Below the pieces are notes generated by a model, which worked only from the letters and a program-made list of their open reading frames with translations, was not told where the DNA came from and made no database searches. DNA of 64,000 bases from Escherichia phage NHEP1, in sequence record PQ511146.1; one strand, 5' to 3'. Below are positions 19,971-37,212 of the stretch, one piece after another. The translations under genes were made by a program, and so were the position numbers. The stretch's first letter is position 1; every line of letters begins with the position of its first letter.

Positions 19971-20547
19971 ATCTGGTGAACGATTCCATACCTTAAGCAG
20001 TTAATATCATTACAGAGCGTTTAAAGGCGGCTTACAAGCAACTCTCTATTTCGAGCGTAGCGAGAACGCACGTCCGTTTTGACCCAAATCACCATACGCT
20101 CGGATTTTAACCAAACCCTCGCGGTGTTTCTGTTGACACATTACCGCTCCTGAAATATGCTTATAGCATCGACACGTTCCAGCCATATGTCGATAAAGTC
20201 TTATTTTTTAAACATGTTGCCGGAATACTCACGGGTGGAACATGACCAACACACATGCATCTACAGAAACATCTGGAGGAGTGAAAGAGGAAAACTTCAA
20301 TTCTGAGGATTCTCTATCTCCGTCCCAGGTGGATCCTGAGGCTGATGACCTAACGTGGGAGGATATCATAGCCATCTGGTTCTCTATTATGCCTGAGCAC
20401 GAAGAGTTCAGAGGTGGGAGACTATAAAGCACCGAGCCCACATAAGTTTATCATGCTAAAGCATGGCCTGAAGAGGCAAACGTGCATAATTCCATCGTAT
20501 TGGAACGTGTAAACCCTGTTCACACTCTCATTTCCAGAGGAGATTCC

Positions 20548-20763
20548 ATGAAAATAGAGATATTTGGTGGGGCTGACAACACTCGTGGCCTGATTTACCT
20601 TGAATTCGATGAATCATACCTGCCAGAGGTGTTAAATATAGATGCTGTTGCGGAAGCCCTTGATGTAGACCCTAAAGATCTCTACTCCCGTGCTGAGATT
20701 GATGGTTGGGAAGAGACTCTGAACATTGATTTCAGTGAAGTAGTAGATGAACCTTTGGACTGA
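20548..20763 (+). CDS. Small acidic hypothetical protein
   Basis: ATG 20548 after GAGGAG; 71 aa. Confidence 0.4.
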   Translation: MKIEIFGGADNTRGLIYLEFDESYLPEVLNIDAVAEALDVDPKDLYSRAEIDGWEETLNIDFSEVVDEPLD

Positions 20764-23270
20764 CACACAAGTCTGCTTTGCAGGTTTAGCTGCTCAGCTA
20801 AGGTTCTGGAGGCACCTATAACATCTTCCAACTAAATTTCCTACCAACACAGTTACTTACCTACCACACATGACTGTTTGCTTGTTTAGTGAGCAGTCAT
20901 CACTTGACATTCTTGCCTATCTTGATAAAATTAAGTTCTTCTCTTTTCTTTTACCGAGTAATTCGGGTTTTCTGTTCTCTTCGGTTTGAAGGGGTATGGA
21001 GATACACCTGAGTGAACAGGGTGAACAACCGAACCTTTAGCTATGGCATTAGCATGGCGAAGCGGACGGGTGACGAAAGAGGGGCCGGAGGACACCAGTC
21101 ACTGCCATATAGTATATGGGTGATAACCTGAAGAGTCTGAATAAGTGTTTAAGTACCAGTCAGAGGAAAAGGTGAATGGTAGCCGAAGGGGGAGGGGGGT
21201 TTCTTATATCTTTAATTTGTATACTTTATATACACTTGTAAACCAATTCAATTAGAATCTGTTTACCACACAAAGGGGATGGAGACAAATATCACCTATT
21301 AAACTTGAATTATTTATAGAAAATACCACAACACCCGTTAAGTCTTTGATTTTACACACAAATCTTACAAATATCCTACCTCCACATTTAACATACTTGT
21401 AACATATTCCATATCCTACCTGCCTGATCAATTTACTCCATCACATTCCCACATTTTCCCTGTCTGTACTACCCCACCCCCGCCGGGAGTCCCGTCATAT
21501 CTGGCTTTCCAGCAAATATCACACCAACAAATATCATCACCTGAAGAGGGTTTCATCCCATAATACCTGCCTTACCTGAAGAGCGCTTCATACACCACGT
21601 AAATTTTTTAATTGACCCCTCCCCGCCGCCAGAGAGGTTGGCTTTTCCCACACAGGCCTGAAGAGTCAGCCAGAAATATCTGAACAGGCAGTTATGTCCC
21701 GATTTTGTGCTTGTCCTACAGGAGTGCTGCCAGGCGGACGGAATGGGAATACTTCTCATTCTTATAATAATTCTCAAATATCGAGGCAGTGAGGCAAATT
21801 AATAGGCCAGGCCGTTCACACAGTGGCACAACATTTGCAATCTATCTTGTGTGGATGAATGAGAATACCTATCATTGTGAGAATGGTTATCATTACGGGC
21901 AATTTAACATAATACCCATTATGCGCACCACTGGCGATACATACAGGGATTGATAACATGGGTTACTGTTTACGCATATAACAATTATATTTCTTACTAT
22001 TTGTGTGGGATATAGTTAGCAACCAATAGATTAGATATTGACCTGCAGACTTCTGACCGTCCAGACGTCTAAACGCCCACACAACAAGGATTATACATAC
22101 ACTCCTGCATGTAACCAGGGCCGCAAAAATGCTACCATACCAGTTTGTAAATTTTTCATGCAGCACTTGACAAAGAGGAGAAAAACTTGTCTGACACAAT
22201 GTGACAATTTTGTCACTTTTGACACTTTTACCTTTGACACAATATGACACAATAACGGCTGTTACTATTCCATATCTCACTGTTTACGCCTGAATAGTTT
22301 ACGCAAAAACTGTTTACACAGAGATGATAAGCCATGCCATTCGTTTGCATGAAAACAATTAACAAGATAACAATTGACAAGCTAACAGCCAACAAGCTGA
22401 CAGTTAATAAGTTAATAAGTTATGACATAATATAAAAGCAGGGCAACTATTAGAAGATCTATAGTTGCCTTGCTTGTTATGTCATGATTAACTAAATACA
22501 AGGCAACTATGATCTGAATAATAGATTGCAGACAAACTATCACGGGGGTGATTGTTACTGCTTTTATATTATGTCGCGACTCCGTCGCGCCATGCCATTC
22601 GTTTGCATAGTTGCCTTATTGTTACAGGTAAAACAATTACATTATTAATTATTTCTTATCTTTCTCTTAGTCATCTAATGATTCCAGTCAGTATAGTAAT
22701 GTACAGTAAACATTAGACGACTAAATATTTCTCTGTGTATAATAACTTATCGTGACAATTTCGAACTGTTTACGAAAAATGTTGACACCTGAGCTGATTT
22801 ATGTTATGCAGTTTACACGAATAATTATTTTATGCAGGTATTGACTATTCCGTTATTCTGTGGTTGGAATAAATACTTTGCAGACTATAGAATGGCGTGC
22901 GTACGTGAATTCTGAGATCTGGCGGCTATAGTTATACTCGATTTTTCGCGTAGAACACGCTTTCGATGCTGTGTAAGTGTATGACTTATAAAGATTTTTA
23001 GTTGTTGACAAGATATTGGAGATGTGCATCAGGTTAAAATTTGTGCAATAGCGGCATTACGTGCACTTTTGGGAGAGAAAACGGGTAAAAATGGCCCTGC
23101 TACCACACAATGAAAGATTATGCAATAGTTATTTTCCATGTATATTTGTACAGTATGTGGGATTGATGGCTAGTCAATTATTCCACTTGCCAGGTAGGGC
23201 CGTTTATGGTAGGAGAAGAGCAGACAAAAAGAAAGGGGCCTTTAAGCCCCTTGATAATTCAGTTAAGAAA
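20764..23270. repeat. ORF-poor, repeat-dense non-coding zone at the convergence of plus and minus transcription blocks
   Basis: No convincing ORF of 100 aa or more; at least five short repeat families seen (see findings). Confidence 0.6.
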
Positions 23271-23690
23271 TTATAATGATTCGTATATTTCAAAAATCCG
23301 ATTTGCCAGGTCGTTACGGTAGCGGAATTTTTCATCGCGCTTGATCATTAAATCCTTATAGCCGTACTCTTTAAGCACTTCATTAACTTTATAGCGGCAT
23401 ACCTGCATATTATCTTGAGCGTCACCAATAAACTTGTTGCTGTGGTGCATTGCTTTAATTTCTTCTTCCAGGACCAGGGCAACTACCCGGACCGGATCAA
23501 GCTGATAGGCGGTAACATCTATGCGGCATTGTAGACGGCTTTTAACGTCTGCCACCGGATATACTGCAACCTCTTCCCCGTCAACATTGACAATAATTAG
23601 TTTACCATCGATTTCGAATCCTTTCGCCGCCGGACCGTGACAAAAAGCGTTATCAAAGCTATATGCCGGATTATCAGATTTAATGTTCAT
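23271..23690 (-). CDS. Hypothetical protein
   Basis: Track ORF 139 aa; ATG with AGAGG RBS. Confidence 0.5.
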   Translation of the reverse strand: MNIKSDNPAYSFDNAFCHGPAAKGFEIDGKLIIVNVDGEEVAVYPVADVKSRLQCRIDVTAYQLDPVRVVALVLEEEIKAMHHSNKFIGDAQDNMQVCRYKVNEVLKEYGYKDLMIKRDEKFRYRNDLANRIFEIYESL

Positions 23691-24434: not shown

Positions 24435-24537
24435 GGCGTTTTCCTCTCTTCTGGTTGTTGTGTGGGCACTTTTGCCCCTTCAAGGTAAATGCTACCCCAC
24501 CACCCGGCAGATGTCAACGGTTTTTATAGTTTTTTAT

Positions 24538-24588
24538 ATGACAGGCACCCCCGGTGATTGTCTCCCCCCGTCGCCAGGTGCCTGCCGT
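24538..24588. repeat. Imperfect hairpin element (copy A), related in inverted orientation to 33699-33880
   Basis: ACAGGCACCCCCGGTGATTGTCTCCC is the exact reverse complement of GGGAGACAATCACCGGGGGTGCCTGT at 33854-33879. Confidence 0.6.
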
Positions 24589-24639
24589 GAAATAAGCATA
24601 ACAAAAAACAGGACAAAAACAAGCCCTGTTTTGTAAAGA

Positions 24640-24843
24640 TTAGATGATCTGCATATCCTCCACGATAATTTCTAATTTCCAAATAAGATGATCTAAGCTC
24701 CCTGATAAAAATGATTCCGATACATAACCGCCATCGGATACCGTAGCAAGGATCTCGCCATTTGCTTGCTCTTTGATTTGAACATCCAGGCGGTTAGCCT
24801 TTGCTTTATTCAGGACGGCGATCAGGCGGTTAGCTGTAGTCAT
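24640..24843 (-). CDS. Hypothetical protein
   Basis: Track ORF 67 aa. Confidence 0.45.
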   Translation of the reverse strand: MTTANRLIAVLNKAKANRLDVQIKEQANGEILATVSDGGYVSESFLSGSLDHLIWKLEIIVEDMQII

Positions 24844-24927
24844 GGTGTTTTCCTTCCAGTTGTGAGCGGCACTATTGCCGCCCTACGTGATACATCTTAC
24901 ACTATCCGGCACATCATGCAAGCTATT

Positions 24928-25119
24928 TTATACTTCCTCACCTATAAAGTCGGATCTATTCTTCTCCGTCATGCGTTTAAGTAGTTCTTGCATGTTGCTG
25001 ATAGCTTGCAATGTATCTTCTTCCAGGCTTGAATCAAGATAATCAGGATCATTCTTCACCTTGCTATGATTGTGATACCGCAACGCTGCTAATACCTTTC
25101 TAACTTGTTCTGCATTCAT
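24928..25119 (-). CDS. Hypothetical protein
   Basis: Track ORF 63 aa. Confidence 0.45.
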   Translation of the reverse strand: MNAEQVRKVLAALRYHNHSKVKNDPDYLDSSLEEDTLQAISNMQELLKRMTEKNRSDFIGEEV

Positions 25120-25131
25120 TTTTATTACTCC

Positions 25132-25344
25132 TTAAAACCAGGTGCCAACCGTTTCCAATAGGTCACTGACTACCAGAACAACACCGATTAGCACATATTT
25201 AATCAGGAAGGGGATTAGCGCCAGCGCCGCTACTATGATCCCCATTGTCATGATTATTTTTCTCATGGTTAACGGTTCACGTAAGTTTTTTTTTCCCATC
25301 TTCTGATCCTCTGTTAGCATACGATAGCGATCACGCCGCCACAA
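25132..25344 (-). CDS. Small membrane protein
   Basis: Two hydrophobic segments. Confidence 0.45.
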   Translation of the reverse strand: MWRRDRYRMLTEDQKMGKKNLREPLTMRKIIMTMGIIVAALALIPFLIKYVLIGVVLVVSDLLETVGTWF

Positions 25345-25577
25345 ATAGAAGGTAAATCAAAACGGTCTAACTTGCAAGCTATTTTTAAACGAAAGGCAAC
25401 ATAAAAGAAAATTTGCAAACAATCGATCATTGTGTTAGCTGTTGAAACGCTGCCAGCATTAAACACCACCCCGCCCACGGCGTTAAACGTTGCGTTACTC
25501 ACGAAAGCGGAAAGGCAAGCGATCACGGTGGCGATCATAATGTTGCGTTTTGTCAATCTGTAGATGATGTTTTTCAT
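25314..25577 (-). CDS. Hypothetical membrane-like protein
   Basis: Start moved to ATG (MKNIIY) downstream of the promoter and GGCGGCAGCATTGCCGCC hairpin that the longer track ORF reads through. Confidence 0.45.
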   Translation of the reverse strand: MKNIIYRLTKRNIMIATVIACLSAFVSNATFNAVGGVVFNAGSVSTANTMIDCLQIFFYVAFRLKIACKLDRFDLPSICGGVIAIVC

Positions 25578-25646
25578 TCTGTCATGTTGGCGGCAGCATT
25601 GCCGCCCTACGAAATACATTCTACCCGATTTGTAATTGTTGTCAAA

Positions 25647-25916
25647 CTAATTTTTCAAGCTCGACCAGTCAAAACACGGCGGGATCTCGTTAAAACTTGT
25701 GCCCTGTAAAGCACATAATTTTTTAGCAATAGCCGCCGTGACCTGGCGCTGTACGCGCGGATCTGCTACTGATTGGAGAAAGTAGGCGGCTTTATACGTG
25801 ATCATGCTTTCGCCTGTTTCCTTGCTAACATGATGCACTATTTTAGCCTTATCATCTTTTACCAGGGTGTAACCGGATTCGATGGCCTTGATTGCAACGT
25901 CCAATGATATTTTCAT
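25647..25916 (-). CDS. Hypothetical protein
   Basis: Track ORF 89 aa. Confidence 0.5.
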   Translation of the reverse strand: MKISLDVAIKAIESGYTLVKDDKAKIVHHVSKETGESMITYKAAYFLQSVADPRVQRQVTAAIAKKLCALQGTSFNEIPPCFDWSSLKN

Positions 25917-25963
25917 GATTTATCTCTTTATTGATGGCGGGGAATACTCCCCCGCCTTATTAA

Positions 25964-26134
25964 TTACTCTTCATCGTCGCCGTTATAGTATTCAATGCCG
26001 TTTTCATCGGTTACGGTAATATTAACGCCACCGATAGCAACACGATCACGGGCAAACGTCATGGCTTCATTTAAATCTTCAGACCAAAAAATATTGTGAC
26101 CTTTGCGCGATACGTAAAACATAGTCGGGATCAT
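25964..26134 (-). CDS. Small ORF (56 aa)
   Basis: Not in track; ATG preceded by promoter plus GC-clamp hairpin cassette; translation MIPTMFYVSRKGHNIFWSEDLNEAMTFARDRVAIGGVNITVTDENGIEYYNGDDEE. Confidence 0.4.
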   Translation of the reverse strand: MIPTMFYVSRKGHNIFWSEDLNEAMTFARDRVAIGGVNITVTDENGIEYYNGDDEE

Positions 26135-26216
26135 GATTTGTTTCTCTTTTGTTGTGAGCGGGAAACCATTTCCCGCCCTATGTGATACATCTTAAACTAA
26201 TTTAAAACGTTGTCAA
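26135..26216 (-). promoter_or_regulatory. Promoter (TTGACA-N16-TAAGAT) followed by GC-clamp 5'UTR stem-loop (PeSL-like cassette)
   Basis: Minus-strand hexamers map to plus 26211-26216 and 26189-26194; hairpin GAGCGGGAAACCATTTCCCGCCC at 26156-26178. Confidence 0.5.
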
Positions 26217-26446
26217 TTATTTTCAAAAAATTTTTCTGCCGTGATATTCTTCCCGGTAGGGTTCGCTACTTTCAAAATTTTATCATGCACTGGACGCCCA
26301 AAAGAATAAGCGCCGTACACAGTGCACCAATAATCGCCGTCAGGCTGTACTATTACCGCCGCATAGGGTACGCCTTTTTCGTTTTTGCTGACAAAATAGA
26401 TCACATTGCCATTAATAGCCTCAGCGCGTTTAATTTGTTCCATCAT
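26213..26446 (-). CDS. Hypothetical protein
   Basis: Track ORF 77 aa. Confidence 0.5.
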   Translation of the reverse strand: MMEQIKRAEAINGNVIYFVSKNEKGVPYAAVIVQPDGDYWCTVYGAYSFGRPVHDKILKVANPTGKNITAEKFFENN

Positions 26447-26509
26447 GATGATTCACCTATCTTTATTTTTTCATAGTTTCAGGAGGGGCCTTTTTCGGCC
26501 CCGCCAGGC

Positions 26510-26794
26510 TTATTTATTGATGGCGTGCAGCGGGAAAGGTACGCCAGGTTGATAGATAACTTTTACAACCTCATCAGGGCAAAAGAAGTTACAAAATTCA
26601 CCCCGATAAGCTTCATCTTCTTTTAATTCTTCATCAACATACTCAAAAAAGTAGTCGATGCTTGGATAATCCTGGCCGGGATTATAGTCAACCATTGTCA
26701 GGACCAGTTCAAGATCGTTGCGTAGGATATGCATACCTGCTTTTAAGTATTTTGCTTCCATTTCTACTACATCGCCAACGGTAACAATAGCCAT
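26510..26794 (-). CDS. Hypothetical protein
   Basis: Track ORF 94 aa. Confidence 0.5.
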   Translation of the reverse strand: MAIVTVGDVVEMEAKYLKAGMHILRNDLELVLTMVDYNPGQDYPSIDYFFEYVDEELKEDEAYRGEFCNFFCPDEVVKVIYQPGVPFPLHAINK

Positions 26795-26998
26795 GGTTTT
26801 AACTCCTATCTATCTGGTTAATGATTGGAGGCCTCACCGCTCCCCCGACACCCTTTATTATCCATATTGTAGGACTTGATGCAAGTACTTCTTTAAAAAT
26901 TTTTAAGCGCCTTGAGGCCGCTGTAACGCCAAAATAATAAAGGCCATGCGGTTGCATAGCCATTAGATGATTATATCGCTGTAGGCCCTGCTGGGGCC

Positions 26999-27349
26999 TT
27001 ATTTTGCATTATTTCCTATATTGCCGCTACGGTACCAGCGTTTACGGTGAAAATGGTAATAATCGCCATCGGCATTAAACATCAGATGGTTTTCAATAAC
27101 CAGCTTACGAAGGTGGGCCGGATCTTGTTCCATTCTTGCCAGATTCTGGCGGCTGTTACGTAAGCGGATAAATTCCATATTCAGGCCGTTGATTGCAGCA
27201 TGGATGTCAAAGTAACCACCTTTGAGACGTTCACGCATGGCGTTAATCTCAACACAATATACAGATTTCTCACAAATCAAGGTATTAGCCAGGGCGCGGA
27301 CCTGGGCAAGGGGGTTAAGCTCATTAAGGTAATATAGTTTTACTTTCAT
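26999..27349 (-). CDS. Hypothetical protein
   Basis: Track ORF 116 aa. Confidence 0.5.
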   Translation of the reverse strand: MKVKLYYLNELNPLAQVRALANTLICEKSVYCVEINAMRERLKGGYFDIHAAINGLNMEFIRLRNSRQNLARMEQDPAHLRKLVIENHLMFNADGDYYHFHRKRWYRSGNIGNNAK

Positions 27350-27366
27350 AAAATAACCTGCTGAAA

Positions 27367-27672
27367 CTAGTTTGAGAAAACATCGTTCACAATAGCGATC
27401 ACAATGCCGTTCACCTTGTCACGGTCAACAATGCACAAATCACCATAGATCATGTGGTAGTCTGGATGATCTTTGACGGAATAGTCAATCAATGTTTTCT
27501 TATCATCCAGCTTACCAACTTCCATTCTCATAACGATATGAGAATCATCAAAGGCATTATTCCGAAAAGTCATAACCTGACCGCCAGGGCACCCAGTGAT
27601 TTCCACCTCCACGCCGTCTACGATCTGACCATCAAAGAAATAAAGATTATTAGCCTGGATAAACATGATCAT
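27367..27672 (-). CDS. Hypothetical protein
   Basis: Track ORF 101 aa. Confidence 0.5.
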   Translation of the reverse strand: MIMFIQANNLYFFDGQIVDGVEVEITGCPGGQVMTFRNNAFDDSHIVMRMEVGKLDDKKTLIDYSVKDHPDYHMIYGDLCIVDRDKVNGIVIAIVNDVFSN

Positions 27673-27716
27673 TACTCCTTTTTTGCACTGATTATTTTAA
27701 CAGGGTTTAAATTTAC

Positions 27717-27756
27717 TTTATTGATGGCCCTGGAATCAAGGCCATCTAAAAATAAA
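27717..27756. repeat. Conserved 40-bp hairpin cassette TTTATTGATGGCCCTG..CAAGGCCATCTAAAAATAAA (copy 1 of 3)
   Basis: Near-identical copies at 31423-31462 and 32045-32084. Confidence 0.6.
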
Positions 27757-27758
27757 TT

Positions 27759-27959
27759 TTACAGGCCTACAATCTCTTTAATTCGTTTTACTGCTGCCTC
27801 AGCGCCTTGAGGGTAAAAATTATGGTAACCAATCACGCGAGTGATACTAATCGCCGTTTGATGATCTTCATAATCACCTTTAAAGATTTCTTGACCGTCA
27901 ATCAGCACGGCAATTTTTTCTTCTTTTTTGAAGTTAATAACGCGGATATTGTTGCTCAT
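27759..27959 (-). CDS. Hypothetical protein
   Basis: Track ORF 66 aa; promoter, GGGGAGCAATCCCC hairpin and AAAGGAG RBS upstream. Confidence 0.5.
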   Translation of the reverse strand: MSNNIRVINFKKEEKIAVLIDGQEIFKGDYEDHQTAISITRVIGYHNFYPQGAEAAVKRIKEIVGL

Positions 27960-28434
27960 TTTGTTTCTCCTTTCTAGTCTTTGTGGTGGGGATTGCTCCC
28001 CGTTGATTGTTATTATCCATATTCCGGACCGGATTGCAACACCCTAGAAGAAAAATTTTTGAAAAAGTTAAGCCCCCAGGGATTGGGGGCCGTTATCAGT
28101 TACTTACAGCGATAAAGTACATCCCTACGCCTAACAATATTTCAAGAGCGATGATCTCAAGCCATACCGTAACACGGCGCACCTTATCGGTGCGGGGCTT
28201 ATCCTTGGGTGTCATCGTCTCCCCCTTTCCTCCTGTTAGCAGTTACGTGGTTTGCAATGGTCCCCAGGAGTATTATCACCACGCACATTACAAGAAAAAT
28301 TATCTCTGTCGTTGTTCGATCCATTGTTATAAAATTCCTTAAGATCAGGCCTGAAAATAAAGCTTTCGTTATTGAATCCATCCCGCCAGGCGGCTGGCTT
28401 CAAATCTTCACTAAATGGATTAATTAACGTGGCA

Positions 28435-28836
28435 TTATTTCGGCTGGCCCACATATTTTCTATTCCTCTTAAATAAGCGATCCGCCTCAGTTAAACAAAT
28501 CTCATGGGCGTGATCTCTGGTTTTAGCTTCATCGAAAACCTGTTGTGCAAGGCTGCAACGTAGGGAGACTGGAAGATCACTATAATAGGCGTTGACAAAC
28601 GTTTGAGCGTCGTACAGGTCTGAAAATACTTTACCCTTTCTATTATTCCCCTTGTCAACAATTGCAAGGATAACCAATACAATAGTTGCAACCACCCCCA
28701 GGAAAATAGATATAATAAACCATAAAAAGGCGGATCTTCCCATCTTGCCAGCGATCCAGGCGTTAAACAAGGCAACCAATACAGCCAAAATAATAAATTC
28801 CATTCTATGTACCTCTTTTACAGTTCTGATTAACAA
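28435..28836 (-). CDS. Membrane protein (two predicted TM segments)
   Basis: Hydrophobic stretches FIILAVLVALFNAWIAG and FLWFIISIFLGVVATIVLVILAIV. Confidence 0.5.
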   Translation of the reverse strand: MLIRTVKEVHRMEFIILAVLVALFNAWIAGKMGRSAFLWFIISIFLGVVATIVLVILAIVDKGNNRKGKVFSDLYDAQTFVNAYYSDLPVSLRCSLAQQVFDEAKTRDHAHEICLTEADRLFKRNRKYVGQPK

Positions 28837-28867
28837 TAAGGCGGCAAATATGCCGCCTGTTACCTGA

Positions 28868-29248
28868 TTAAAAATTATCGCCGTAAATCTTTCCGCTTTC
28901 TACCCATACCACCACGCGAGGCATACTATCCCACACGTCTTGTTTTAGATTGAGCGCGTGCAATTCTTCGGTGGTGCTCATACCAGGCACGGGCTGATTG
29001 TATACTGCAAAACGACCACCCGCATAATCATAGGCCAGGGTTAAATCACACTGGATCATCTTTTTGATCATGGCATTAAGCATGGCGTTAGCCGCATATT
29101 GATCACGTTTTAAAGGCAACTCTTTGATTAGTTTGCGATAGTTTTCGATATGGTCGCACACTGTTTCACGCGGAAGATCTTTCATATCTTCACGGAATGT
29201 GACCAGGTTAAACATAACGGTGTCAATAGCCTTGGTAGTGTTTTTCAT
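28868..29248 (-). CDS. Hypothetical protein
   Basis: Track ORF 126 aa. Confidence 0.5.
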   Translation of the reverse strand: MKNTTKAIDTVMFNLVTFREDMKDLPRETVCDHIENYRKLIKELPLKRDQYAANAMLNAMIKKMIQCDLTLAYDYAGGRFAVYNQPVPGMSTTEELHALNLKQDVWDSMPRVVVWVESGKIYGDNF

Positions 29249-29338
29249 GATGTTATCCTCTTTGTTTTGTGTTGGGGCAAACGTCTTGCCCCCTTGAGTT
29301 TTAATATAGCAGGTTTTTAGGTTATTGCAACACTTTAT

Positions 29339-29962
29339 TTATGAAAAAGTCATCTCACCATATTCATCGACATCAAACCGCCAATCATTGGCCTCGATAA
29401 GGCCGATCAGGTTTTCTGCGGTGAACTGTTCTAGATAGGCCTCCTCCAGGTCTACGTAAACCTTGCGGGATAGCTCCCGTGCCGTCTCGGTGATCAGTTC
29501 TTCCAGGTCTTCCACTTTGTTTTCTTGTTTGGCGGTCAGATCTAGCCAAGTGGTATCAATGTACCCGTTTACAGTGTTTTCATGGCTGTAATGGCTGTAC
29601 TTGTCGCGTTCAATACTGGCGGATAGTTCGCCATCGTGCATTGTGCCGAACAAGTGACGAATTGATCTGAACTTGGTCAGGGCCTTGACTTTACGCAAGA
29701 ATTTTTCTAAGTCTACATTTTCAGCACTGATCGATGCGCCATCGCCTTGACACCAAAAGCCGGACCAATGTACTTCGGTATCTTCAAGGCCGTACTCTGG
29801 AAAGATATATTCTTTGTAGTATTCAATTACATTTTCTGCAAAAAAGTCATCCCCGCTGCGTTCTTCTCTTTCGCGTACCATTTCAATGGCTTTTTCTTTT
29901 TGTTCGTCGGTCAGCACGTCGAAAGATAAATTGTAACCTGTGGTAATGTTAACGGTGGTCAT
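29339..29962 (-). CDS. Hypothetical protein
   Basis: Track ORF 207 aa; preceded by promoter and hairpin cassette. Confidence 0.55.
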   Translation of the reverse strand: MTTVNITTGYNLSFDVLTDEQKEKAIEMVREREERSGDDFFAENVIEYYKEYIFPEYGLEDTEVHWSGFWCQGDGASISAENVDLEKFLRKVKALTKFRSIRHLFGTMHDGELSASIERDKYSHYSHENTVNGYIDTTWLDLTAKQENKVEDLEELITETARELSRKVYVDLEEAYLEQFTAENLIGLIEANDWRFDVDEYGEMTFS

Positions 29963-30048
29963 GATATTTTCTCCTGTTTTCTTTGTTAGTGGCGGGAAGT
30001 TTTCCCGCCTGCGTGTTTAATTATACTTATTGGGATTTACTTGTCAAC
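29963..30048 (-). promoter_or_regulatory. Promoter (TTGACA-N16-TATAAT) followed by 5'UTR stem-loop GGCGGGAAGTTTTCCCGCC (PeSL-like cassette)
   Basis: Minus-strand hexamers map to plus 30042-30047 and 30020-30025; hairpin at 29991-30009. Confidence 0.55.
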
Positions 30049-30297
30049 ACTATTTTTTAAATTATTGTGGCGCAAAATGTTTAAAATCTCCTCAACGTCA
30101 TCAACACGGCGGCAATTTTTAAACGCTACCAATTGCCCCATGATTTTAATCACTGGGCGGCCTTGCCAGTGCCCCTGAAGAAAGCGCGCCTTGACTTTAT
30201 CGGTGGAACTATCACGCCACCAAATAGCCTTGTTGTTGCAGTAGTAAAAATTATTCAGGATAACATCAACTTTATCAAAATTTTTTAATTTACGCAT
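30037..30297 (-). CDS. Hypothetical protein
   Basis: Track ORF 86 aa. Confidence 0.5.
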   Translation of the reverse strand: MRKLKNFDKVDVILNNFYYCNNKAIWWRDSSTDKVKARFLQGHWQGRPVIKIMGQLVAFKNCRRVDDVEEILNILRHNNLKNSVDK

Positions 30298-30516
30298 GGC
30301 GTTTACTCCTTTCTCTCTTTGATGTGGTTAGTATAGCTAACCTGTTGACGATGTCAATGATATTTTTAACGCCATAAAACGGCCCTGGGCGATGTTTTCA
30401 GGTTAAAGGGGGGCGATTGCATAGGTGGGGGCCTTTTTGGCACTTACAGGGCCAACCAGGGGCGCTATTCGTAGGATAGAAATAAAAAGCCCCGCACAAT
30501 GGCGGGGCGTTGGTTG

Positions 30517-30738
30517 TTATTTGTCTTTATGGCGGTATCGTTCTGCCTGTCGTTCACGTTCCAAAAGTAGGCAGGGCAATTTACGATCATAATGATTCCG
30601 CCAGATCTTCCCAAACCTTTTTGGCTTATTCAGTTTATTGTTACGCTGTCGGCGTTCTGGCAGCTCTTCGGAATCATGAGGGCGCTTTACAATTTTCTCG
30701 AAATTAATTTTCATATATTCCCCCCTTGCTAACTTCAA
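30517..30738 (-). CDS. Small basic hypothetical protein
   Basis: Track ORF 73 aa, Arg/Lys-rich; chosen over the overlapping plus-strand ORF for strand consistency. Confidence 0.4.
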   Translation of the reverse strand: MKLARGEYMKINFEKIVKRPHDSEELPERRQRNNKLNKPKRFGKIWRNHYDRKLPCLLLERERQAERYRHKDK

Positions 30739-31075
30739 TATTGGCCTGAATGGCCCGGATACGGCGCTTTATAACTTCCTGATCTGTGTGGTCGTATCCC
30801 CAAAAGTCCACAATTTTTGCGCCCCCAGCCTCCAGGCGGTATAGTGTTTCCTGCATTTTGTAAGCCGGGATCGGTCGCGGTGTTACTTGGTCACCTTCTT
30901 TATTTTTATACTTTATAATATAATCTTCGTTATCGTTGAATTCCCAAAATGGATATTCTGCAAGGGCGGTACTTCCTCTTTCCTTTTTATCCTGGATCTT
31001 ATTTACAATTAAAGCCGTAGCAATAGCGCCAATAATAAAACTAGCCCCGCTGATCATGTTACTTTCTCCTTTCAT
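30704..31075 (-). CDS. Hypothetical protein with N-terminal TM segment
   Basis: Track ORF 123 aa. Confidence 0.5.
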   Translation of the reverse strand: MKGESNMISGASFIIGAIATALIVNKIQDKKERGSTALAEYPFWEFNDNEDYIIKYKNKEGDQVTPRPIPAYKMQETLYRLEAGGAKIVDFWGYDHTDQEVIKRRIRAIQANIEVSKGGIYEN

Positions 31076-31131
31076 GGTGTTAATAAATTATCTTTATAGA
31101 TGGCCCTGCAACCAGGACCACCGAAAAATAA

Positions 31132-31377
31132 CTATTTCACAATGCCTACAAAACAGATCCCGCCTTCACCTATGTAAGCAATATCGGTCACTTTGTAGTC
31201 GGTTAAGATCTGTTTATTCAGATCATTAATAAAATCGGTCATTGCGTTGGTGTAGTTGTCTTCTGTATCTAAGGCATAATCCCAGGTGTAAACCTTTTTA
31301 CGTCCGAAGCCTTTTACCATGATACGGGCGCTTTTGGTGTTAGTAGGGGCATAATACTTGGTGATTAGTGCTGCCAT
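31132..31377 (-). CDS. Hypothetical protein
   Basis: Track ORF 81 aa; GAGGAG RBS. Confidence 0.5.
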   Translation of the reverse strand: MAALITKYYAPTNTKSARIMVKGFGRKKVYTWDYALDTEDNYTNAMTDFINDLNKQILTDYKVTDIAYIGEGGICFVGIVK

Positions 31378-31422
31378 GGTTTTAACTCCTCATTAGTTCA
31401 GTGTTAACAGTGTAAAGTTTAC

Positions 31423-31462
31423 TTTATTGATGGCCCTGAAGTCAAGGCCATCTAAAAATAAA
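31423..31462. repeat. Conserved 40-bp hairpin cassette (copy 2) carrying a minus-strand TTGACT -35 in its loop
   Basis: Minus strand reads TTGACT-N18-TAAACT upstream of gene 31132..31377. Confidence 0.55.
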
Positions 31463-31464
31463 TT

Positions 31465-31806
31465 TTACTCGTTTTCTTCCAGCTTTGAAAGCTCTTCTTT
31501 CACTTCTTCAAGCTCTGTCTGCAATTCTTGGTATTCTTCGTCGTCCTCAATATCCAGGCTGTCGATGTAGTCGCTAAATCCGCAGCGGTAAGCGATAGGA
31601 TCTAACTCCTTGAGGATACGCGACGGAAGAAAAGAAATGCTTCCGATCATAATTTCGCCGTAGATCTCGTCTAACCATTCATCATAGTTTTCGTCGTACT
31701 TGTCCTCGTCGATTTCAAAGTTATCGATCTTGTTCTCAAGGTCTGCGATCTGTTTTTTCAGCGCGGCGATCTGCATAGCTTTTTCTGCGGCGGTCATAGT
31801 AGTCAT
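31465..31806 (-). CDS. Acidic coiled-coil-like hypothetical protein
   Basis: Track ORF 113 aa. Confidence 0.5.
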   Translation of the reverse strand: MTTMTAAEKAMQIAALKKQIADLENKIDNFEIDEDKYDENYDEWLDEIYGEIMIGSISFLPSRILKELDPIAYRCGFSDYIDSLDIEDDEEYQELQTELEEVKEELSKLEENE

Positions 31807-32044
31807 GGTGTTTTCTCCTTTTGTGTATTCTGGGAAGTTTTCCCGTTTACGTGTTTAAGTATATCAATCTAAGTTAGCTTGTCAATTAAAAATTTAAGAA
31901 AAATTTTGCAAAACTGTTAGCGCTACTCATTAACATTTGCGCCAGGATGTAACCGACAACGCAAACGATAATAGTTACCTTTGTGTATTGGCGTGTAGTG
32001 CTCATCTTAAAGCCCCCTTTTTCGCTTAGTTGAGACTAGTTTAC

Positions 32045-32084
32045 TTTATTGATGGCCCTGGAGTCAAGGCCATCTAAAAATAAA
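32045..32084. repeat. Conserved 40-bp hairpin cassette (copy 3)
   Basis: Same sequence family as 27717 and 31423. Confidence 0.55.
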
Positions 32085-32085
32085 C

Positions 32086-32490
32086 TTAATAAGTTTTCAG
32101 TACTTTACCGTCCAACCTGTCAAGCTGGATCTCAATAGCTGCAGAAAACCTATTGTACACCACGTCGCCCATGGAATCCAACCAGTCTATGACGTTATAC
32201 ACCTGCTCTTTGTTCTTGCAGGTCCGGATCCGTTTCATGATGTAAGCCGGATCAATATTGGTACTTTCGTTGGTGTTCCCCTGTACCTGATTTGCCGTAT
32301 TAGTTACATCTTTAATGGCCTTTACCACCACCTGGAAGGGCTTTAAGGTGCCTTTTGCGTTCATCTCACGCACTTTTGCGGCGCGGTTGTTATAGGTTAC
32401 ACAACGGCGGCAAATGTTCACTAAGTGCATGTCAATAATTTTTTCATCGTTTGCCAGTTCGTTCATGATGCGGCGTACGTTCTTATTCAT
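32086..32490 (-). CDS. Hypothetical protein
   Basis: Track ORF 134 aa. Confidence 0.5.
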   Translation of the reverse strand: MNKNVRRIMNELANDEKIIDMHLVNICRRCVTYNNRAAKVREMNAKGTLKPFQVVVKAIKDVTNTANQVQGNTNESTNIDPAYIMKRIRTCKNKEQVYNVIDWLDSMGDVVYNRFSAAIEIQLDRLDGKVLKTY

Positions 32491-32566
32491 GATCTTTTTC
32501 CTTTGTGTTGGCGGGAAACATTCCCGCCTTTTGTGATTAGTTTACTTGAATTTTGCAGCGTGTCAA
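32491..32566 (-). promoter_or_regulatory. Promoter (TTGACA-N16-TAAACT) followed by stem-loop GGCGGGAAACATTCCCGCC
   Basis: Minus-strand hexamers map to plus 32561-32566 and 32539-32544; hairpin 32510-32528. Confidence 0.5.
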
Positions 32567-33233: not shown

Positions 33234-33633
33234 GATTTTTATCCTCTCTGTTAATTAGTGTGGTGTTGTTCACCTTGCGAGGATAAGAATAACAGAACTA
33301 TCCGAGCTGTCAACCATTAGTTAGAATTATTTTTTGGGCAGAATTCTCCAGCCGCCGCCACTGCCAGGTTAACCATCATTTTTTCGTACTCTTCTTTATG
33401 TTCCAACGCTCCCGCCATAGCCTTTTCAACCAGGGCGATAGCCTCAGCGTCATTAATCGCTACATTTTCCAGGGGGGATCCTATTACCTTTCATTTTTGT
33501 ACCTCTTCTTCAGTTGTTGCCTACCCTGCATAGGCCCACCAGGTTTGCAAGCCTTCATTCTCCCCTACCTGGTCAGTTAGGTCCTGCCAGGCTGGCCCCG
33601 CCAGGTTGCAACGGTTAGCGCATCAGGTTAGAA

Positions 33634-34510
33634 TTTTTTTTTTTTTTGAAAGTGTTGACAGCGGCCCCGCCAGGTGGCACAATATACCTATCGAAAGGAC
33701 GGCAGGCACCGGTGACGGGGGAGACAACCACCGGGGATGGGCGCTGCATAAAATGAGAACGGTTATCATTATCATTTAAAAATTTATGCAAAAAATCCTT
33801 GCTCTCTTTGTCCTGTGTGATACTATAATAACAAGCCGGGGCAACAGGGGCCGGGAGACAATCACCGGGGGTGCCTGTTATTCTGCAAACGAGAATGATT
33901 ATCATTCAAAATTCTAAATGAGAACTTCTCGCATTTCATAAATTTAATTAGCATGCTAATTACCTACCGTGACAATTCTATATAAAATAATACCTCCTTA
34001 AGTATTTCCATATACAAATTTTAAAAATCCATTTCCGAAAACGAAAAATCGCTTTCGTTCCCAAAAATTTCAGGTCGAGCGCCGGAACGATTTCCAGAAA
34101 ATCTGATTCAGAAAACGAAAAACAGATCGAGTACTGAGAAATTTATCGAGAAAAATTTTCAGAAAATTCAATCTTTGAAATGAAAAACAGATCGAGTACT
34201 GAGAGAGATGTGCCTAAACTTCCTGATAATGATGGGCTTATTGTTATAAAAGGCCAGAAGTAAGTTGGGAAAGTTCTGGTAGATGGGTGAGAGTGTGTGC
34301 GGAAAATCTGGAACGGTGATTTGAAGTACGGTGCGAATGATAGAATGAGTAGCGCAGCTTATCGTGCCTGTCTTGAAAAAATCCATTTTAGTTTTCGATC
34401 CATTTTCTGATTTTCTAAGAATTTTAAAATATCCGACTAGGTAAAATATCAAAAGGAGGAAATCTATTTTAGAAACCCTCCTTATACTTGATGTGCCAGG
34501 GATTTTCAAG
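33634..34510. repeat. Repeat-dense non-coding hub: T14 tract, split hairpin element (copy B), direct repeats, 18-bp perfect palindrome
   Basis: T-run 33634-33647; GGGAGACAAYCACCGGGG twice; TAATTAGCATGCTAATTA at 33945-33962; GAAAAACAGATCGAGTACTGAGA twice. Confidence 0.55.
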
Positions 34511-34512
34511 TA

Positions 34513-34842
34513 TCAACTATCTTTGTTTTTAGGCTTGTACATGCGTAGAGGTATAGTTTTTATAACACTCCATCTCCCCAGCCCTTCCCAGTTCCAGTTG
34601 TGGGCATGGTACCCGGTTATGCATGCACTGCTGGCGTGATCATAAGCATAAGAGAACGCTATGCGTAACAAACGAGGCCAGTCTTTCCATGGTTGTGGTC
34701 CGTAAGCTTTTCTCCAACACCGACACAAACTAAATGTCTCAAGAATAGGCAGGATAACAAATCCATACACCGCCACCAGAATGGTCAGCGCAATGATTGT
34801 CAGGAATACATACCCTGCAGTTGAAATAATGATCTCTGTCAT
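34513..34842 (-). CDS. Hypothetical protein with N-terminal TM segment
   Basis: Track ORF 109 aa. Confidence 0.45.
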   Translation of the reverse strand: MTEIIISTAGYVFLTIIALTILVAVYGFVILPILETFSLCRCWRKAYGPQPWKDWPRLLRIAFSYAYDHASSACITGYHAHNWNWEGLGRWSVIKTIPLRMYKPKNKDS

Positions 34843-35042
34843 TTGTCATCCCCTTTCTTACGGATATAGATGTGAGAGCCTGCTTGTACATAAATTTCCC
34901 GACCATCTTCTGCAAAGATGTGGAATACACGGTCACCTTCGTATTCAATACGAGATATCTTCATAACGGTCTTCCCACCCGGAATGCGGATCTCATCGCC
35001 TACAGCAATGTTCCATGCAGATTTAAGCTTAAACATCGTCAC
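34839..35042 (-). CDS. Hypothetical protein
   Basis: Track ORF 67 aa. Confidence 0.45.
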   Translation of the reverse strand: MTMFKLKSAWNIAVGDEIRIPGGKTVMKISRIEYEGDRVFHIFAEDGREIYVQAGSHIYIRKKGDDK

Positions 35043-35274
35043 CCTCCTTTGGGAACTTGAACTCTGGCATAGCCATATACGCTACAACAGGGTTGTGATC
35101 AAAGTAGAACTGACCATTAATTATCCCAGTTTTTTGCACATAGTCACCAGATCCTGCAAGAACAACCTCGCAAGCTCCGAAATCTACATTGCCATTCTCG
35201 TCAGCCATGGCTACGATATACTTTCCGAGAGGCATGTTTTTAACGCCGTCTACAAATGTCCACCCTTTGTTCAT
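35029..35274 (-). CDS. Hypothetical protein
   Basis: Track ORF 81 aa. Confidence 0.45.
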   Translation of the reverse strand: MNKGWTFVDGVKNMPLGKYIVAMADENGNVDFGACEVVLAGSGDYVQKTGIINGQFYFDHNPVVAYMAMPEFKFPKEGDDV

Positions 35275-35294
35275 ACTTTATCTCCTGCACTTTC

Positions 35295-35627
35295 TTAAGG
35301 TAACCAGTAAACAATCTCGCCTTTCAGTTCCATACCATTACCTACATAAATTTGCCAGCCATCCATCTTAGCTGCTGCAGGAGTAAAATCTTCAGAGCCT
35401 CTAACCTCTTTCCATGAGCCATAGTCTGGCTGCCAGATATAAAATCCACCTTCTTTGTCCCATGCGCAATACACCACGTTCAACCAGTTACCCATTGCAA
35501 CAATGGTGGGCCGTGGGAATAATACATCTACAGATGCGCAGCAATATCGGGTATCTTTTAAATTGCAATCCCAAAAGATGTCTGCCAGTGTGGCGGCGAT
35601 AGCTTTACGTCTTTCTAATGTTACCAT
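35295..35627 (-). CDS. Hypothetical protein
   Basis: Track ORF 110 aa. Confidence 0.5.
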   Translation of the reverse strand: MVTLERRKAIAATLADIFWDCNLKDTRYCCASVDVLFPRPTIVAMGNWLNVVYCAWDKEGGFYIWQPDYGSWKEVRGSEDFTPAAAKMDGWQIYVGNGMELKGEIVYWLP

Positions 35628-35637
35628 GGTACGATAC

Positions 35638-35829
35638 TCACTTGTTGTTAAGAAGTTCTAAAACTTTCTGTTTTACTTTATCAAGATCTGTTGATTCAAA
35701 AACTGTGCGATATCCCCAACTTTGCCCATAGGAATGACTGCAATCACCGTAACACCATTGCTCAACCTGATAGTATTCAAGGAATGGGTGCTGTCTAACT
35801 ATGATACCGTCTCGATTAAAAATTACCAT
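35638..35829 (-). CDS. Hypothetical protein
   Basis: Track ORF 63 aa. Confidence 0.45.
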   Translation of the reverse strand: MVIFNRDGIIVRQHPFLEYYQVEQWCYGDCSHSYGQSWGYRTVFESTDLDKVKQKVLELLNNK

Positions 35830-35892
35830 AATTTATCCCTCTCTGCTAGTTTATGTTTATATTATATACCGCAGTTTTCAGATGTCAACCTT

Positions 35893-36144
35893 TTACAGGT
35901 TACTCCAGTATACTCGGCATTTACACTTCGGGCAATGAGGTTCTTTTATGTAATAACCGTCAGTCTTTGGAACACTTTTTGGTGCAGTTTTAAGATTGTA
36001 CCGAGTAAAGCAACGGAAGCAGGTTACCTCTCCTACCTGTTGATCGTTTATCCACTCGCCAGAGTAAAGCTCTTTCTTGTTTCTCATAATTATCTCCCCA
36101 AGCCTCTGCAATCTTCTACCAGAATCTCCAGCCAGAAAGCACAC
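35893..36144 (-). CDS. Small Cys-rich zinc-ribbon-like protein
   Basis: CFRCF...CPKCKC motif pairs. Confidence 0.5.
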   Translation of the reverse strand: MCFLAGDSGRRLQRLGEIIMRNKKELYSGEWINDQQVGEVTCFRCFTRYNLKTAPKSVPKTDGYYIKEPHCPKCKCRVYWSNL

Positions 36145-36338
36145 GGGAACACTTTGATGATTGAATCTTCACTCGGCTCGGAAGTTCTTTTTCCGTAGGG
36201 CAGGTAGAAATACCCTCCTGCAGATTCAAACATGGCTCCTTCTGTTGTATCTATCACAGCTAGAATTAAGATTTTAGTCTCCATAGTGCTCCCCTGTCTT
36301 AATCGTTGTGGTGACTATACCACCTTAAAATATAGCTG

Positions 36339-36878
36339 TCAACACTCTTTGTACTCCACCACGATAATATCTATATCAAAAGTGGCAAGGTTAATAATGT
36401 CCTCTACATGTTCCCACTTCAAACCGCCTATGCCGCACCCGATCTTAGGGATGTAGAATGGTAAAATCGACCCCTCAAATACTTCATTGACTCGCTCAAA
36501 TCCTTTCAGTATTGAGAAATATTCAGCATTAGGCCCTGGGTAGAACTGAGTATACAGATTTATTCCGTAGACAATACCTCTCGGAGATAAGTGCTCCCAG
36601 CGGGAGAACGCGCCCAGTTTACTTAGGCAACCGTGCATAGTCATTTTATCAGCTTCCAATGCTTGAGGGAACTCACGGGCAATCTGTTTTGCTACACCCT
36701 TACCCATTGTGTGGAAGCAGTTACAACCGTGGATCAGGTGACCATCACCGCTCTTAAAAAGGGAGATTAAATCTCCCTCTACAGTATCAATAATCACGAT
36801 ATTCCAGCTCCTCTTCCACAATTTCAAAAAACTCAGTCCAGCACTGTGGCATATTGGAGTTACCGAAGTGGCTTTCAT
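36339..36878 (-). CDS. Macro-domain-like protein (putative ADP-ribose binding/processing)
   Basis: GDLI...HGCNC...MGKGVAKQI and later GCGIGG glycine-rich motif, in the order expected for macro domains. Confidence 0.5.
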   Translation of the reverse strand: MKATSVTPICHSAGLSFLKLWKRSWNIVIIDTVEGDLISLFKSGDGHLIHGCNCFHTMGKGVAKQIAREFPQALEADKMTMHGCLSKLGAFSRWEHLSPRGIVYGINLYTQFYPGPNAEYFSILKGFERVNEVFEGSILPFYIPKIGCGIGGLKWEHVEDIINLATFDIDIIVVEYKEC

Positions 36879-37212
36879 AGTAAAGGTTTTTACCGCTCGG
36901 AAGATAAAAATCTGTTACCTCATAAAATCCACAATCGTCGCACTCTCCCTCTTCAAACTTGGCCTTAACCTTAATGCCGAGGAAGGTGAAAAGTTTATGG
37001 ATATCTTCGGTCTCGAACTCCCAATTAATGTTGTTTTCCGCATCGGTGTAAAACTGGATCAGTAGGCCATCATCCATTTTTCCAAAATATTCTGTGAAGT
37101 AGCTTCCTTCCCAGAAGTCTTTGTGACAAATAATATCCATGCGCTTGCCCATAATAAAGGTGTGGGCGTTTCGTGCATCGTCACGAATCAGTTTTGGCAT
37201 TTCATAAATCAT
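36787..37212 (-). CDS. Hypothetical protein
   Basis: Track ORF 141 aa. Confidence 0.5.
   Translation of the reverse strand: MIYEMPKLIRDDARNAHTFIMGKRMDIICHKDFWEGSYFTEYFGKMDDGLLIQFYTDAENNINWEFETEDIHKLFTFLGIKVKAKFEEGECDDCGFYEVTDFYLPSGKNLYYESHFGNSNMPQCWTEFFEIVEEELEYRDY

Follow-up and report, generated by a model that had tools for sequence, protein, structure and literature searches.

Two intergenic spacers of an Escherichia phage genome, here called A and B, lie on either side of three small minus-strand open reading frames (66, 101, and 116 aa) and resemble each other. A sequence-only reading of the 64,000-nucleotide stretch that contains them (PQ511146.1; hereafter, the window) had proposed that they form an extended repeat pair of about 100 bp bracketing the three genes, with a promoter-like element in each copy. 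The question raised by this locus is what the two spacers share: a duplicated sequence or a common function.

The locus and its surroundings

The window belongs to an rV5-like Escherichia phage (Vequintavirus), with 92 to 94% identity to Vequintavirus phages such as nimi, FV3, and ECP26 over the ~5-kb stretch around the two spacers. Its minus-strand genes run from ~20 kb to 61.4 kb, with small ORFs at ~23 to 42 kb, and every gene around the two elements is on the minus strand. The region is the counterpart of the rV5 transcription unit "10-1-238-164." The genes adjoining A and B belong to PHROG families with no assigned function, among them phrog_12610 for the 94-aa gene downstream of A (26510-26794) and phrog_12347 for the 66-aa gene downstream of B (27759-27959), and their homologues are confined to the genus. 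No Pfam domains were found in the adjoining genes, and the phage collection, searched with distant promoter conservation in mind, contained no homologues of the downstream genes beyond the genus. An Rfam scan of the whole window and a tRNA scan gave no matches.

Extent of the shared sequence

The core of the observation held up. A 14-mer, TTATTATCCATATT, occurs exactly twice in the 64-kb window, once in each spacer (Table 1), and allowing as many as 2 mismatches adds no others; each copy sits within a minus-strand TTGCA(T/A)-N16-GATAAT element. These two elements are also the only matches in the window to the looser pattern TTGCA-N15-18-GATAAT, for which 0.31 sites were expected; 4 of 100 shuffles reached two. 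Both spacers in addition carry AAAAATTTTT, at comparable distances upstream of the -35 hexamer, and the motif CGGGG(G)AGC 10 nt downstream of the -10 hexamer.

The extended repeat, on the other hand, was not borne out. Smith-Waterman alignment of the two proposed intervals recovered the 14-mer alone (score 28, reached by 2 of 2,000 dinucleotide shuffles), and their global identity was 64/120, versus 57.6 ± 2.8 in shuffles. Pairwise alignment of the spacers thus yields the 14-mer and a global excess of ~2 standard deviations, but no extended similarity. In blastn searches, each spacer found one site per genome, its own orthologue, across 116 to 118 records, and the other spacer was never matched. 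Exact same-strand repeats of at least 14 nt number 27 in the window, so that a match of this length is by itself unremarkable. A search of IMG/VR with the 14-mer was uninformative because it gave single matches in more than 120 unrelated viral contigs; a 22-mer specific to B matched two rV5-like contigs only. We regard the A/B signal as real because register and position are shared, and not because of the length of the shared sequence.

Table 1. Features of spacers A and B and of the surrounding cassettes (window coordinates)
Feature	Position	Strand	Basis
Cassette family, span	24443..32566	-	minus-strand scan
Cassette family, -35 starts	32566, 31885, 30047, 29330, 28039 (B), 26884 (A), 26216, 25645, 24517	-	
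B intrinsic terminator, GGCCCCCAATCCCTGGGGGCT with a T-rich tail	28061..28091 (scan, 28091-28071)	-	terminator scan
B AAAAATTTTT tract, UP-element-like, 11 nt upstream of -35	28051..28060	-	sequence
B core promoter (candidate), TTGCAA (28039-28034), N16, GATAAT (28017-28012)	28012..28039	-	
B shared 14-mer AATATGGATAATAA	28023-28010	-	within core promoter context
B hairpin GGGGA-GCAA-TCCCC, from 10 nt after -10	27988..28001	-	
B leader, C/A-rich (ACCACAAAGACTAGAA), Shine-Dalgarno AGGAG, ATG of 66-aa gene	27957..27987	-	
A intrinsic terminator, GGCTATGCAACCGCATGGCC plus TTTATTATTTT	26931..26961 (scan, 26961-26942)	-	terminator scan
A AAAAATTTTT tract, UP-element-like, 10 nt upstream of -35	26895..26904	-	sequence, alignment
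A core promoter (candidate), TTGCAT (26884-26879), N16, GATAAT (26862-26857)	26857..26884	-	
A shared 14-mer	26868-26855	-	two-copy TTATTATCCATATT site
A hairpin GGGGG-(loop)-CCTCC, from 10 nt after -10, weak here	26827..26846	-	
A leader, Shine-Dalgarno AGGAG, ATG of 94-aa gene	26792..26826	-	

A family of candidate promoter-plus-hairpin cassettes

Both elements are intergenic, with a Shine-Dalgarno sequence and ATG ~50 to 60 nt downstream, and the two spacers follow a common order: intrinsic terminator, A5T5 tract, -35 hexamer, 16-bp spacer, GATAAT, 10 nt, G/C hairpin, leader, AGGAG, and ATG. This arrangement is not peculiar to A and B. At least nine cassettes (about a dozen) with the same geometry lie between 24.4 and 32.6 kb, most of them with the consensus -35 hexamer TTGACA, so that the supposed repeat pair bracketing three genes consists of two members of this family whose overall likeness falls within the family range. 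In promoter register, A and B agree at 44/98 positions. Cassette pairs as a whole average 38.3 (SD, 6.3), with a maximum of 59/98 for 31885 and 30047. Their core promoters, at 19/28, are nonetheless the most similar of all cassette pairs. What is distinctive about A and B is their -10 context (the 14-mer) only, and the 14-nt identity is best seen as surroundings of the -10 that two presumably weaker members of the family have in common, rather than as a separate repeat element.

The N16 spacing is found in eight neighboring promoters, and it goes together with the same hairpin offset in the TTGACA promoters 32566, 30047, 26216, and 25645 and in promoter 29330, which has TTGCAA as its -35 and TATATT as its -10. 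A/T tracts like AAAAATTTTT also precede the sibling promoters 26216 and 31885. Phage nimi, whose complete genome measures 137 kb, has TTGCA...TGGATAAT at the two orthologous sites only, and its hairpin cassettes are concentrated in the corresponding ~10-kb stretch of ORFans (37.5 to 47.3 kb).

The hairpins are similarly regular in placement. They start 10 nt after the -10 hexamer in six of seven measured cassettes and 13 nt after it in the seventh. Of the 13 promoters located in intergenic DNA from 23.5 to 33.5 kb, 8 have a hairpin with 5 bp or more that begins 9 to 14 nt after the -10; a control set gave 2 of 48, and by chance ~0.6% of sites would carry one (binomial P of ~3 × 10−15). Folding z scores ranged from −2.1 to −5.6 in seven of nine cassettes, including B (−9.4 kcal/mol, z = −3.2); cassette 31885 was marginal, and A stood outside this range, its RNA folding at −8.4 kcal/mol (z = +0.45) no better than its shuffles. 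The A hairpin is cleaner in rV5 and other phages (GGGGG-GCGG-CCCCC). Because the sequences directly after the hairpins, ACCACAAAG in B and AATCATTAAC in A, lack a U-run in the sense direction, these hairpins do not look like classic terminators of read-through; the leaders that follow them are C/A-rich, as in AACACAA and the B leader. A sense-strand wobble test over the distinct hairpins counted 6 G.T versus 1 A.C, which is weakly informative because several of the hairpins are orthologues of one.

Conservation in related phages

In an alignment of 13 related phages, both -35 hexamers and the -10 hexamer of B are unchanged, and the -10 hexamer of A has a single change, in Phage 206, from GATAAT to the consensus TATAAT. 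The invariant columns comprise CTTGCATC and ACAATATG-ATAATA in A and GTGTTGCAATC and TGGATAATAA-AATCAACGGGG in B. Variation is found in the promoter spacers, the hairpin loops, and the leaders, the B leader varying most; the spacer of promoter B, 16 bp in the window, is 17 bp in nimi and ECP32, and the length of the A5T5 tract differs between phages. A module swap at B in phage A51.2 was considered and rejected, the gene being the same and the leader alone different.

The flanking terminators are conserved as well. That of A, which would end the three-gene unit begun at B, shows loop and stem changes that preserve pairing across the 13 phages (e.g., GCAA-CCGC versus GCGG-TTGC), and that of B, which would close the unit of an upstream 39-aa gene, keeps its stem in 13/13. 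Their orthologues are listed as t177 (A) and t181 (B) in Table S4 of the rV5 paper (PMC3606486). Five pairs of the B hairpin are kept in 11 distinct orthologues with no compensatory change, and no covariation was found in the A hairpin among its orthologues (MAFFT/alifold), where variation in the length of the G-run defeats the MAFFT alignment. Covariation among orthologues therefore says nothing for or against the hairpins, because the stems hardly vary.

Proposed promoter activity and mechanism

Taken together, position, N16 spacing, and invariance support the promoter half of the sequence-only reading, though not a discrete repeat pair around three genes; the original observation is in this sense partly confirmed and its first interpretation partly supported. 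Most likely, A and B are host-type (sigma-70) promoters of an ordinary sort. Each has a small RNA hairpin after it and would switch on small early genes. The 16-bp spacers lie in the 16- to 18-bp range of sigma-70 promoters, and the GATAAT -10 hexamers match the consensus at 5/6 positions, including A at position 2 and T at position 6. The -35 hexamers keep TTG but reach only 3/6 (A, TTGCAT) and 4/6 (B, TTGCAA), and such incomplete hexamer matches count against the promoter reading; in the best-supported view, A and B are sigma-70 early promoters that would be weaker than their TTGACA neighbors. A PhagePromoter annotation in phage Gotham overlaps A and lends it weak support, since the hexamers chosen there differ. 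The rV5 "late" motif TGgTAaAAtA was also tried for A and B and rejected, as TGGATAATAA would put a poor ATAATA hexamer after TGn.

At each cassette, the intrinsic terminator would close the preceding unit, and the A5T5 tract, ~10 nt upstream of the -35, would occupy the position of an UP element. Host sigma-70 RNA polymerase would then read the sub-consensus -35, the 16-bp spacer, and GATAAT and begin transcription 7 to 8 nt downstream of the -10, with predicted starts at ~26849 to 26851 for A and ~28004 to 28005 for B. A pyrimidine-purine step at positions 7 and 8 after the -10, present in 8/9 cassettes, suggests a start that leaves 2 to 4 unpaired nt before the hairpin. The predicted RNA would accordingly open with these unpaired nucleotides, followed by the short G/C hairpin, an unstructured C/A-rich leader, and a strong Shine-Dalgarno sequence. 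Promoter B would serve the 66-aa gene and, on the far side of a hairpin within the unit, also the 101- and 116-aa genes, its transcript stopping at the spacer-A terminator, and promoter A would serve the 94- and 77-aa genes.

As for the hairpin, RppH and RNase E require single-stranded 5′ ends, and 5′ secondary structure stabilizes E. coli mRNA (PMC3997798). A protective role, in which the hairpin would shield the 5′ end from both enzymes, is therefore the most economical one and probably the correct one, with the qualification that hairpin A is weak. The 2 to 4 unpaired nt may still admit RppH, and this makes the protective role uncertain. Overall, we consider it probable that A and B act as self-contained sigma-70 early-gene expression cassettes on the minus strand, and they may have parts in hairpin shielding and, like their siblings, in module exchange.

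Module exchange at sibling cassettes

The cassettes would offer short shared sequences for the exchange of gene modules between phages. Such exchange can be seen at the siblings of A and B. Homology between the window and ten relatives stops exactly after the TTGACA of cassette 26216, the same upstream half of this cassette precedes three different downstream modules, and in SYGMH1 cassette 25645 supplies the downstream half joined to it. Behavior of this kind has been described for the PeSLs (promoter-early stem-loops) of T4-type phages (PMC2839356; PMC4122927). For A and B themselves, a role of this kind is suggested by analogy; no mosaic junction was found at either of them in 12 relatives. 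The only indel nearby concerns the 116-aa gene. Phages rV5, Gotham, SYGMH1, HMD6, and JES2013 lack this gene, and the indel is delimited by the gene boundaries 27374/27014, outside the promoters.

Alternative explanations

These observations bear on the reading from which the analysis started, that the spacers are copies of one ~100-bp repeat, arisen by duplication or gene conversion and serving as direct repeats for recombination, so that the three genes could be excised or exchanged in the manner of the mini-circles formed by PeSL pairs in phi1/RB49 (PMC2839356). The direct-repeat layout around three ORFan genes, the top-ranking core identity of A and B, and the recombination visible at sibling cassettes would all fit, and yet the identity is limited to 14 nt within an overall similarity typical of the family, and the A-B segment is neither missing nor swapped at these sites in 12 relatives. 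A, B, and the 66-aa gene are instead found together in ~115 to 118 records, and the one indel respects gene boundaries; we consider such a repeat unlikely. That the likeness of two A/T-rich spacers arose by chance, with shared motifs that have no function, is hardly credible. Exact repeats as long as the 14-mer are indeed common in the window, many unrelated viral contigs contain the 14-mer, and the global excess is just ~2 standard deviations, but the order of the motifs, their register, and their orientation to terminator and start codon are the same in both spacers, conservation in the 13 phages is highest at the hexamers, and the geometry is repeated at seven more cassettes.

Two further possibilities would give A and B a regulation of their own. 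In one, AATATGGATAATAA would serve as an operator or set A and B apart as a promoter class, and a phage factor (a repressor, an anti-sigma or Srd-type modifier, or an activator) would time them unlike the TTGACA cassettes. The shared block does extend past the hexamer and shows almost no variation between phages, both sites pair it with a nonconsensus TTGCA -35, and rV5-like phages encode putative anti-sigma proteins. Against this, there are two sites only, both in the window and in the whole nimi genome, the dyad symmetry of AATATGGATAATAA is weak, relatives tolerate variants such as AATGTGG and GATATGG, and the remaining geometry is that of the sigma-70 cassettes; moreover, cassette 29330 combines a TTGCAA of its own with a different -10. 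We rate this possibility as decidedly unlikely. In the other, the hairpins are cis-acting RNA signals for a phage factor, through boxB/N- or put-like antitermination or through processing, that let polymerase pass the inter-cassette terminators, and A and B, with AATATGGATAATAA and their TTGCA -35, form a separately timed subclass. This seems very improbable to us, because no sequence is common to the loops and the 14-mer is at only two sites genome-wide.

Comparison with known systems

The closest parallel to the sigma-70 cassettes proposed here is offered by the PeSLs of the T4-type phages phi1/RB49, PST/T4, and nt-1/KVP40 (Arbiol et al. 2010, PMC2839356; Comeau et al. 2014, PMC4122927). In both cases, multicopy intergenic cassettes lie upstream of ORFans in a hyperplastic ORFan region. 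Their parts are an A/T-rich tract on the upstream side, an early promoter of the sigma-70 type, a stem-loop of the form G(n)-loop-C(n), and a Shine-Dalgarno sequence with ATG; one PeSL subclass has its stem-loop downstream of the -10, and sibling cassettes here (26216 and 25645) lie at mosaic junctions. There are also differences. PeSL stem-loops have been shown to terminate transcription (PMC2839356; PMC4122927), whereas the hairpin here is always 10 to 13 nt after the -10, in the transcript, without a U-run, and apart from the canonical terminator upstream. A and B have most of the traits that define PeSLs. Since they reside in a Vequintavirus and not in a T4-type genome and have no insertion, deletion, or replacement junction of their own in 12 relatives, we file them as PeSL-like sigma-70 early promoter cassettes, not as PeSLs.

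Within the same genome type and region, promoters have been predicted for rV5 (Kropinski et al. 2013, PMC3606486, Table S4), of which P185, P194, P174, and P168 are orthologues or neighbors of the sibling cassettes. A and B, which lie upstream of rV5 ORF176 and ORF179, are not among the 33 promoters listed, because they match only 8 to 9 of 12 consensus positions and the rule applied there called for at least 10/12 (PMC3606486). The rV5 paper is silent on the downstream hairpins, and our literature search found neither a Vequintavirus transcriptome nor a prior account of these hairpins.

The 5′-terminal stem-loops of the ompA and papA leaders are known mRNA stabilizers (Emory, Bouvet, and Belasco 1992, reviewed in PMC3997798). 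Like them, the hairpins described here would lie a few nucleotides from the predicted 5′ end, at +3/+4 if transcription begins at position 7 to 8 after the -10, and would be followed by an unstructured leader and a ribosome-binding site. The differences are that the predicted 2 to 4 unpaired nt are perhaps too many for full protection and that, while hairpin B is stable, hairpin A folds like its shuffles.

The upstream tracts also have a familiar counterpart. UP elements are a feature of strong E. coli and phage promoters, and Estrem and coworkers reportedly described those of E. coli and phage promoters in 1998. The A-tract/T-tract of AAAAATTTTT ends 10 to 11 nt upstream of the -35, roughly in the alpha-CTD contact zone, a resemblance only; it differs in that its length is not constant between phages.

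Significance

A and B add two unannotated candidate early promoters to the rV5-type transcription map, a modest gain, and leave current understanding unchallenged. The elements look functional and ordinary. Of broader interest is that the early ORFan region of Vequintavirus appears to be built of promoter-plus-hairpin cassettes much like the PeSLs of T4-type phages, with mosaic junctions exactly at a -35 box, which suggests that a PeSL-like architecture extends beyond the relatives of T4. In phage engineering, the cassettes could serve as candidate building blocks of small size (UP tract, promoter, 5′ hairpin, C/A leader, and ribosome-binding site) with graded predicted strength. The promoter-cassette reading would also explain the tiny genes annotated at these spacers in some records: the ORFs that overlap the spacers (window 26799-26963, rV5 gp175, and Gotham F10B_0186) are unconserved or unannotated elsewhere.

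A three-copy hairpin element

The sequence-only reading had singled out 26835-28090 for a look-alike pair of about 100 bp, here spacers A and B, which carry minus-strand promoter cassettes and bracket three small genes (66, 101, and 116 aa). A better repeat than this pair is an element of ~52 nt, TTTATTTTTA-GATGGCCTTGAyTyCAGGGCCATC-AATAAAGTAAA, which occurs three times in the window and has its first copy inside that same interval. Every copy (3/3) starts at the stop codon of the preceding gene. The element was detected and conserved in 11 of the 12 fetched relatives, HMD6 being the one with no match, and nimi carries three copies across its whole genome.

The element folds into an extended hairpin of ~21 bp (free energy of -23.6 to -25.1 kcal/mol; z of -5 to -6). 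Its 10-bp G/C top includes two G.U pairs and is followed by an internal loop and a base of A/U pairs. The Murica record annotates it as a terminator. A classic terminator is ruled out because no U-run follows the hairpin, and its appearance fits an RNase III-type processing site or a 3' stabilizer better. It also contains TTGACT-N18-TAAAyT and in this respect resembles a PeSL (promoter-early stem-loop of T4-type phages) of the form in which the stem-loop covers the -35 box.

Coordinates of the features discussed (L-numbers denote sequences of fetched relatives)
Feature	Coordinates	Strand	Context
~52-nt hairpin element, copies 1-3	27709-27759, 31412-31468, 32038-32086	minus	
Match to rV5 "late promoter" motif, TGTTAAAATA	27693-27702	minus	between 66-aa and 101-aa genes
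116-aa gene (phrog_8549)	26999-27349	minus	indel among relatives
ORFs across spacers	26799-26963 (ORF over A), 27960-28100 (spacer B); L001 1784-1909; L002 1762-1911; L012 1412-1564		
Perfect TATAAT	26970-26975	minus	between two hairpins of spacer A
Mosaic junction	26211-26216 and 25640-25658; L008 3260-3277	minus (window)	homology break
Gene-poor, repeat-bearing stretch	about 20000-23300, especially 22200-22420		
Two tandem promoter-like sites	33606-33700	plus	

Genes, ORFs, and promoter-like sequences around the spacers

The ORFs drawn over spacers A and B are unlikely to be genes. No relative has an annotation for the 54-aa ORF that spans spacer A, and indels in this spacer have lengths that are not multiples of three. 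For spacer B, the records of rV5 (gp175), Gotham, and A51.2 show small coding sequences, and no counterpart ORF to these exists in the window. Spacer A also holds a perfect TATAAT, kept in 12 of 13 phages, with no usable -35 box upstream; an RNA started there would hold the terminator hairpin alone.

Murica, Alma, ECP32, FFH2, Phage 206, nimi, and A51.2 carry the 116-aa gene; rV5, Gotham, SYGMH1, HMD6, and JES2013 lack it, and the indel has its breakpoints at 27374 and 27014. A single site in the window, TGTTAAAATA, matches TGgTAaAAtA, the "late promoter" motif of rV5, which is of the extended -10 type. One match is not a significant count by itself (46 of 100 shuffles also give one); the site is kept in rV5, A51.2, and Gotham.

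A further rearrangement lies in the sibling promoter-and-hairpin units, named by the start of their -35 boxes, where the -35 box of cassette 26216 is the exact site of a mosaic junction. Sequence up to its TTGACA is common to all relatives compared, and past it each relative carries one of three differing downstream modules. In SYGMH1, what follows the shared sequence after this TTGACA is the downstream half of cassette 25645.

About 17 to 22 GenBank records (MG0656xx) are titled "Campylobacter phage," with Campylobacter jejuni given as the host. Over spacers A and B, their DNA is 85 to 93% identical to that of the E. coli rV5-like phage studied here, and the host label is surprising.

A candidate replication origin and opposing promoter-like sites

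The gene-poor stretch has no convincing genes, and plus- and minus-strand transcription units converge on it. It corresponds to an unannotated gap in nimi (34610-37155) and to the box marked "non-coding" in the rV5 paper (Kropinski et al. 2013, PMC3606486). Short tandem or iteron-like repeats cluster within it (TGACACTTT x4.7, ACTGTTTACGCAAAA x2.6, AACAATTAACAAGAT x2.3, and AGTTAATA x2.6), in the lowest-GC kilobase (0.36) and near the turn of the cumulative GC skew. The stretch is a candidate replication origin.

Finally, the two tandem promoter-like sites read TTGCAA-N17-TAGAAT and TTGACA-N17-CACAAT. They have a tract of 13 T's between them and a repeated GGCCCCGCCAGG on their flanks, and they are oriented opposite to the neighboring minus-strand genes.
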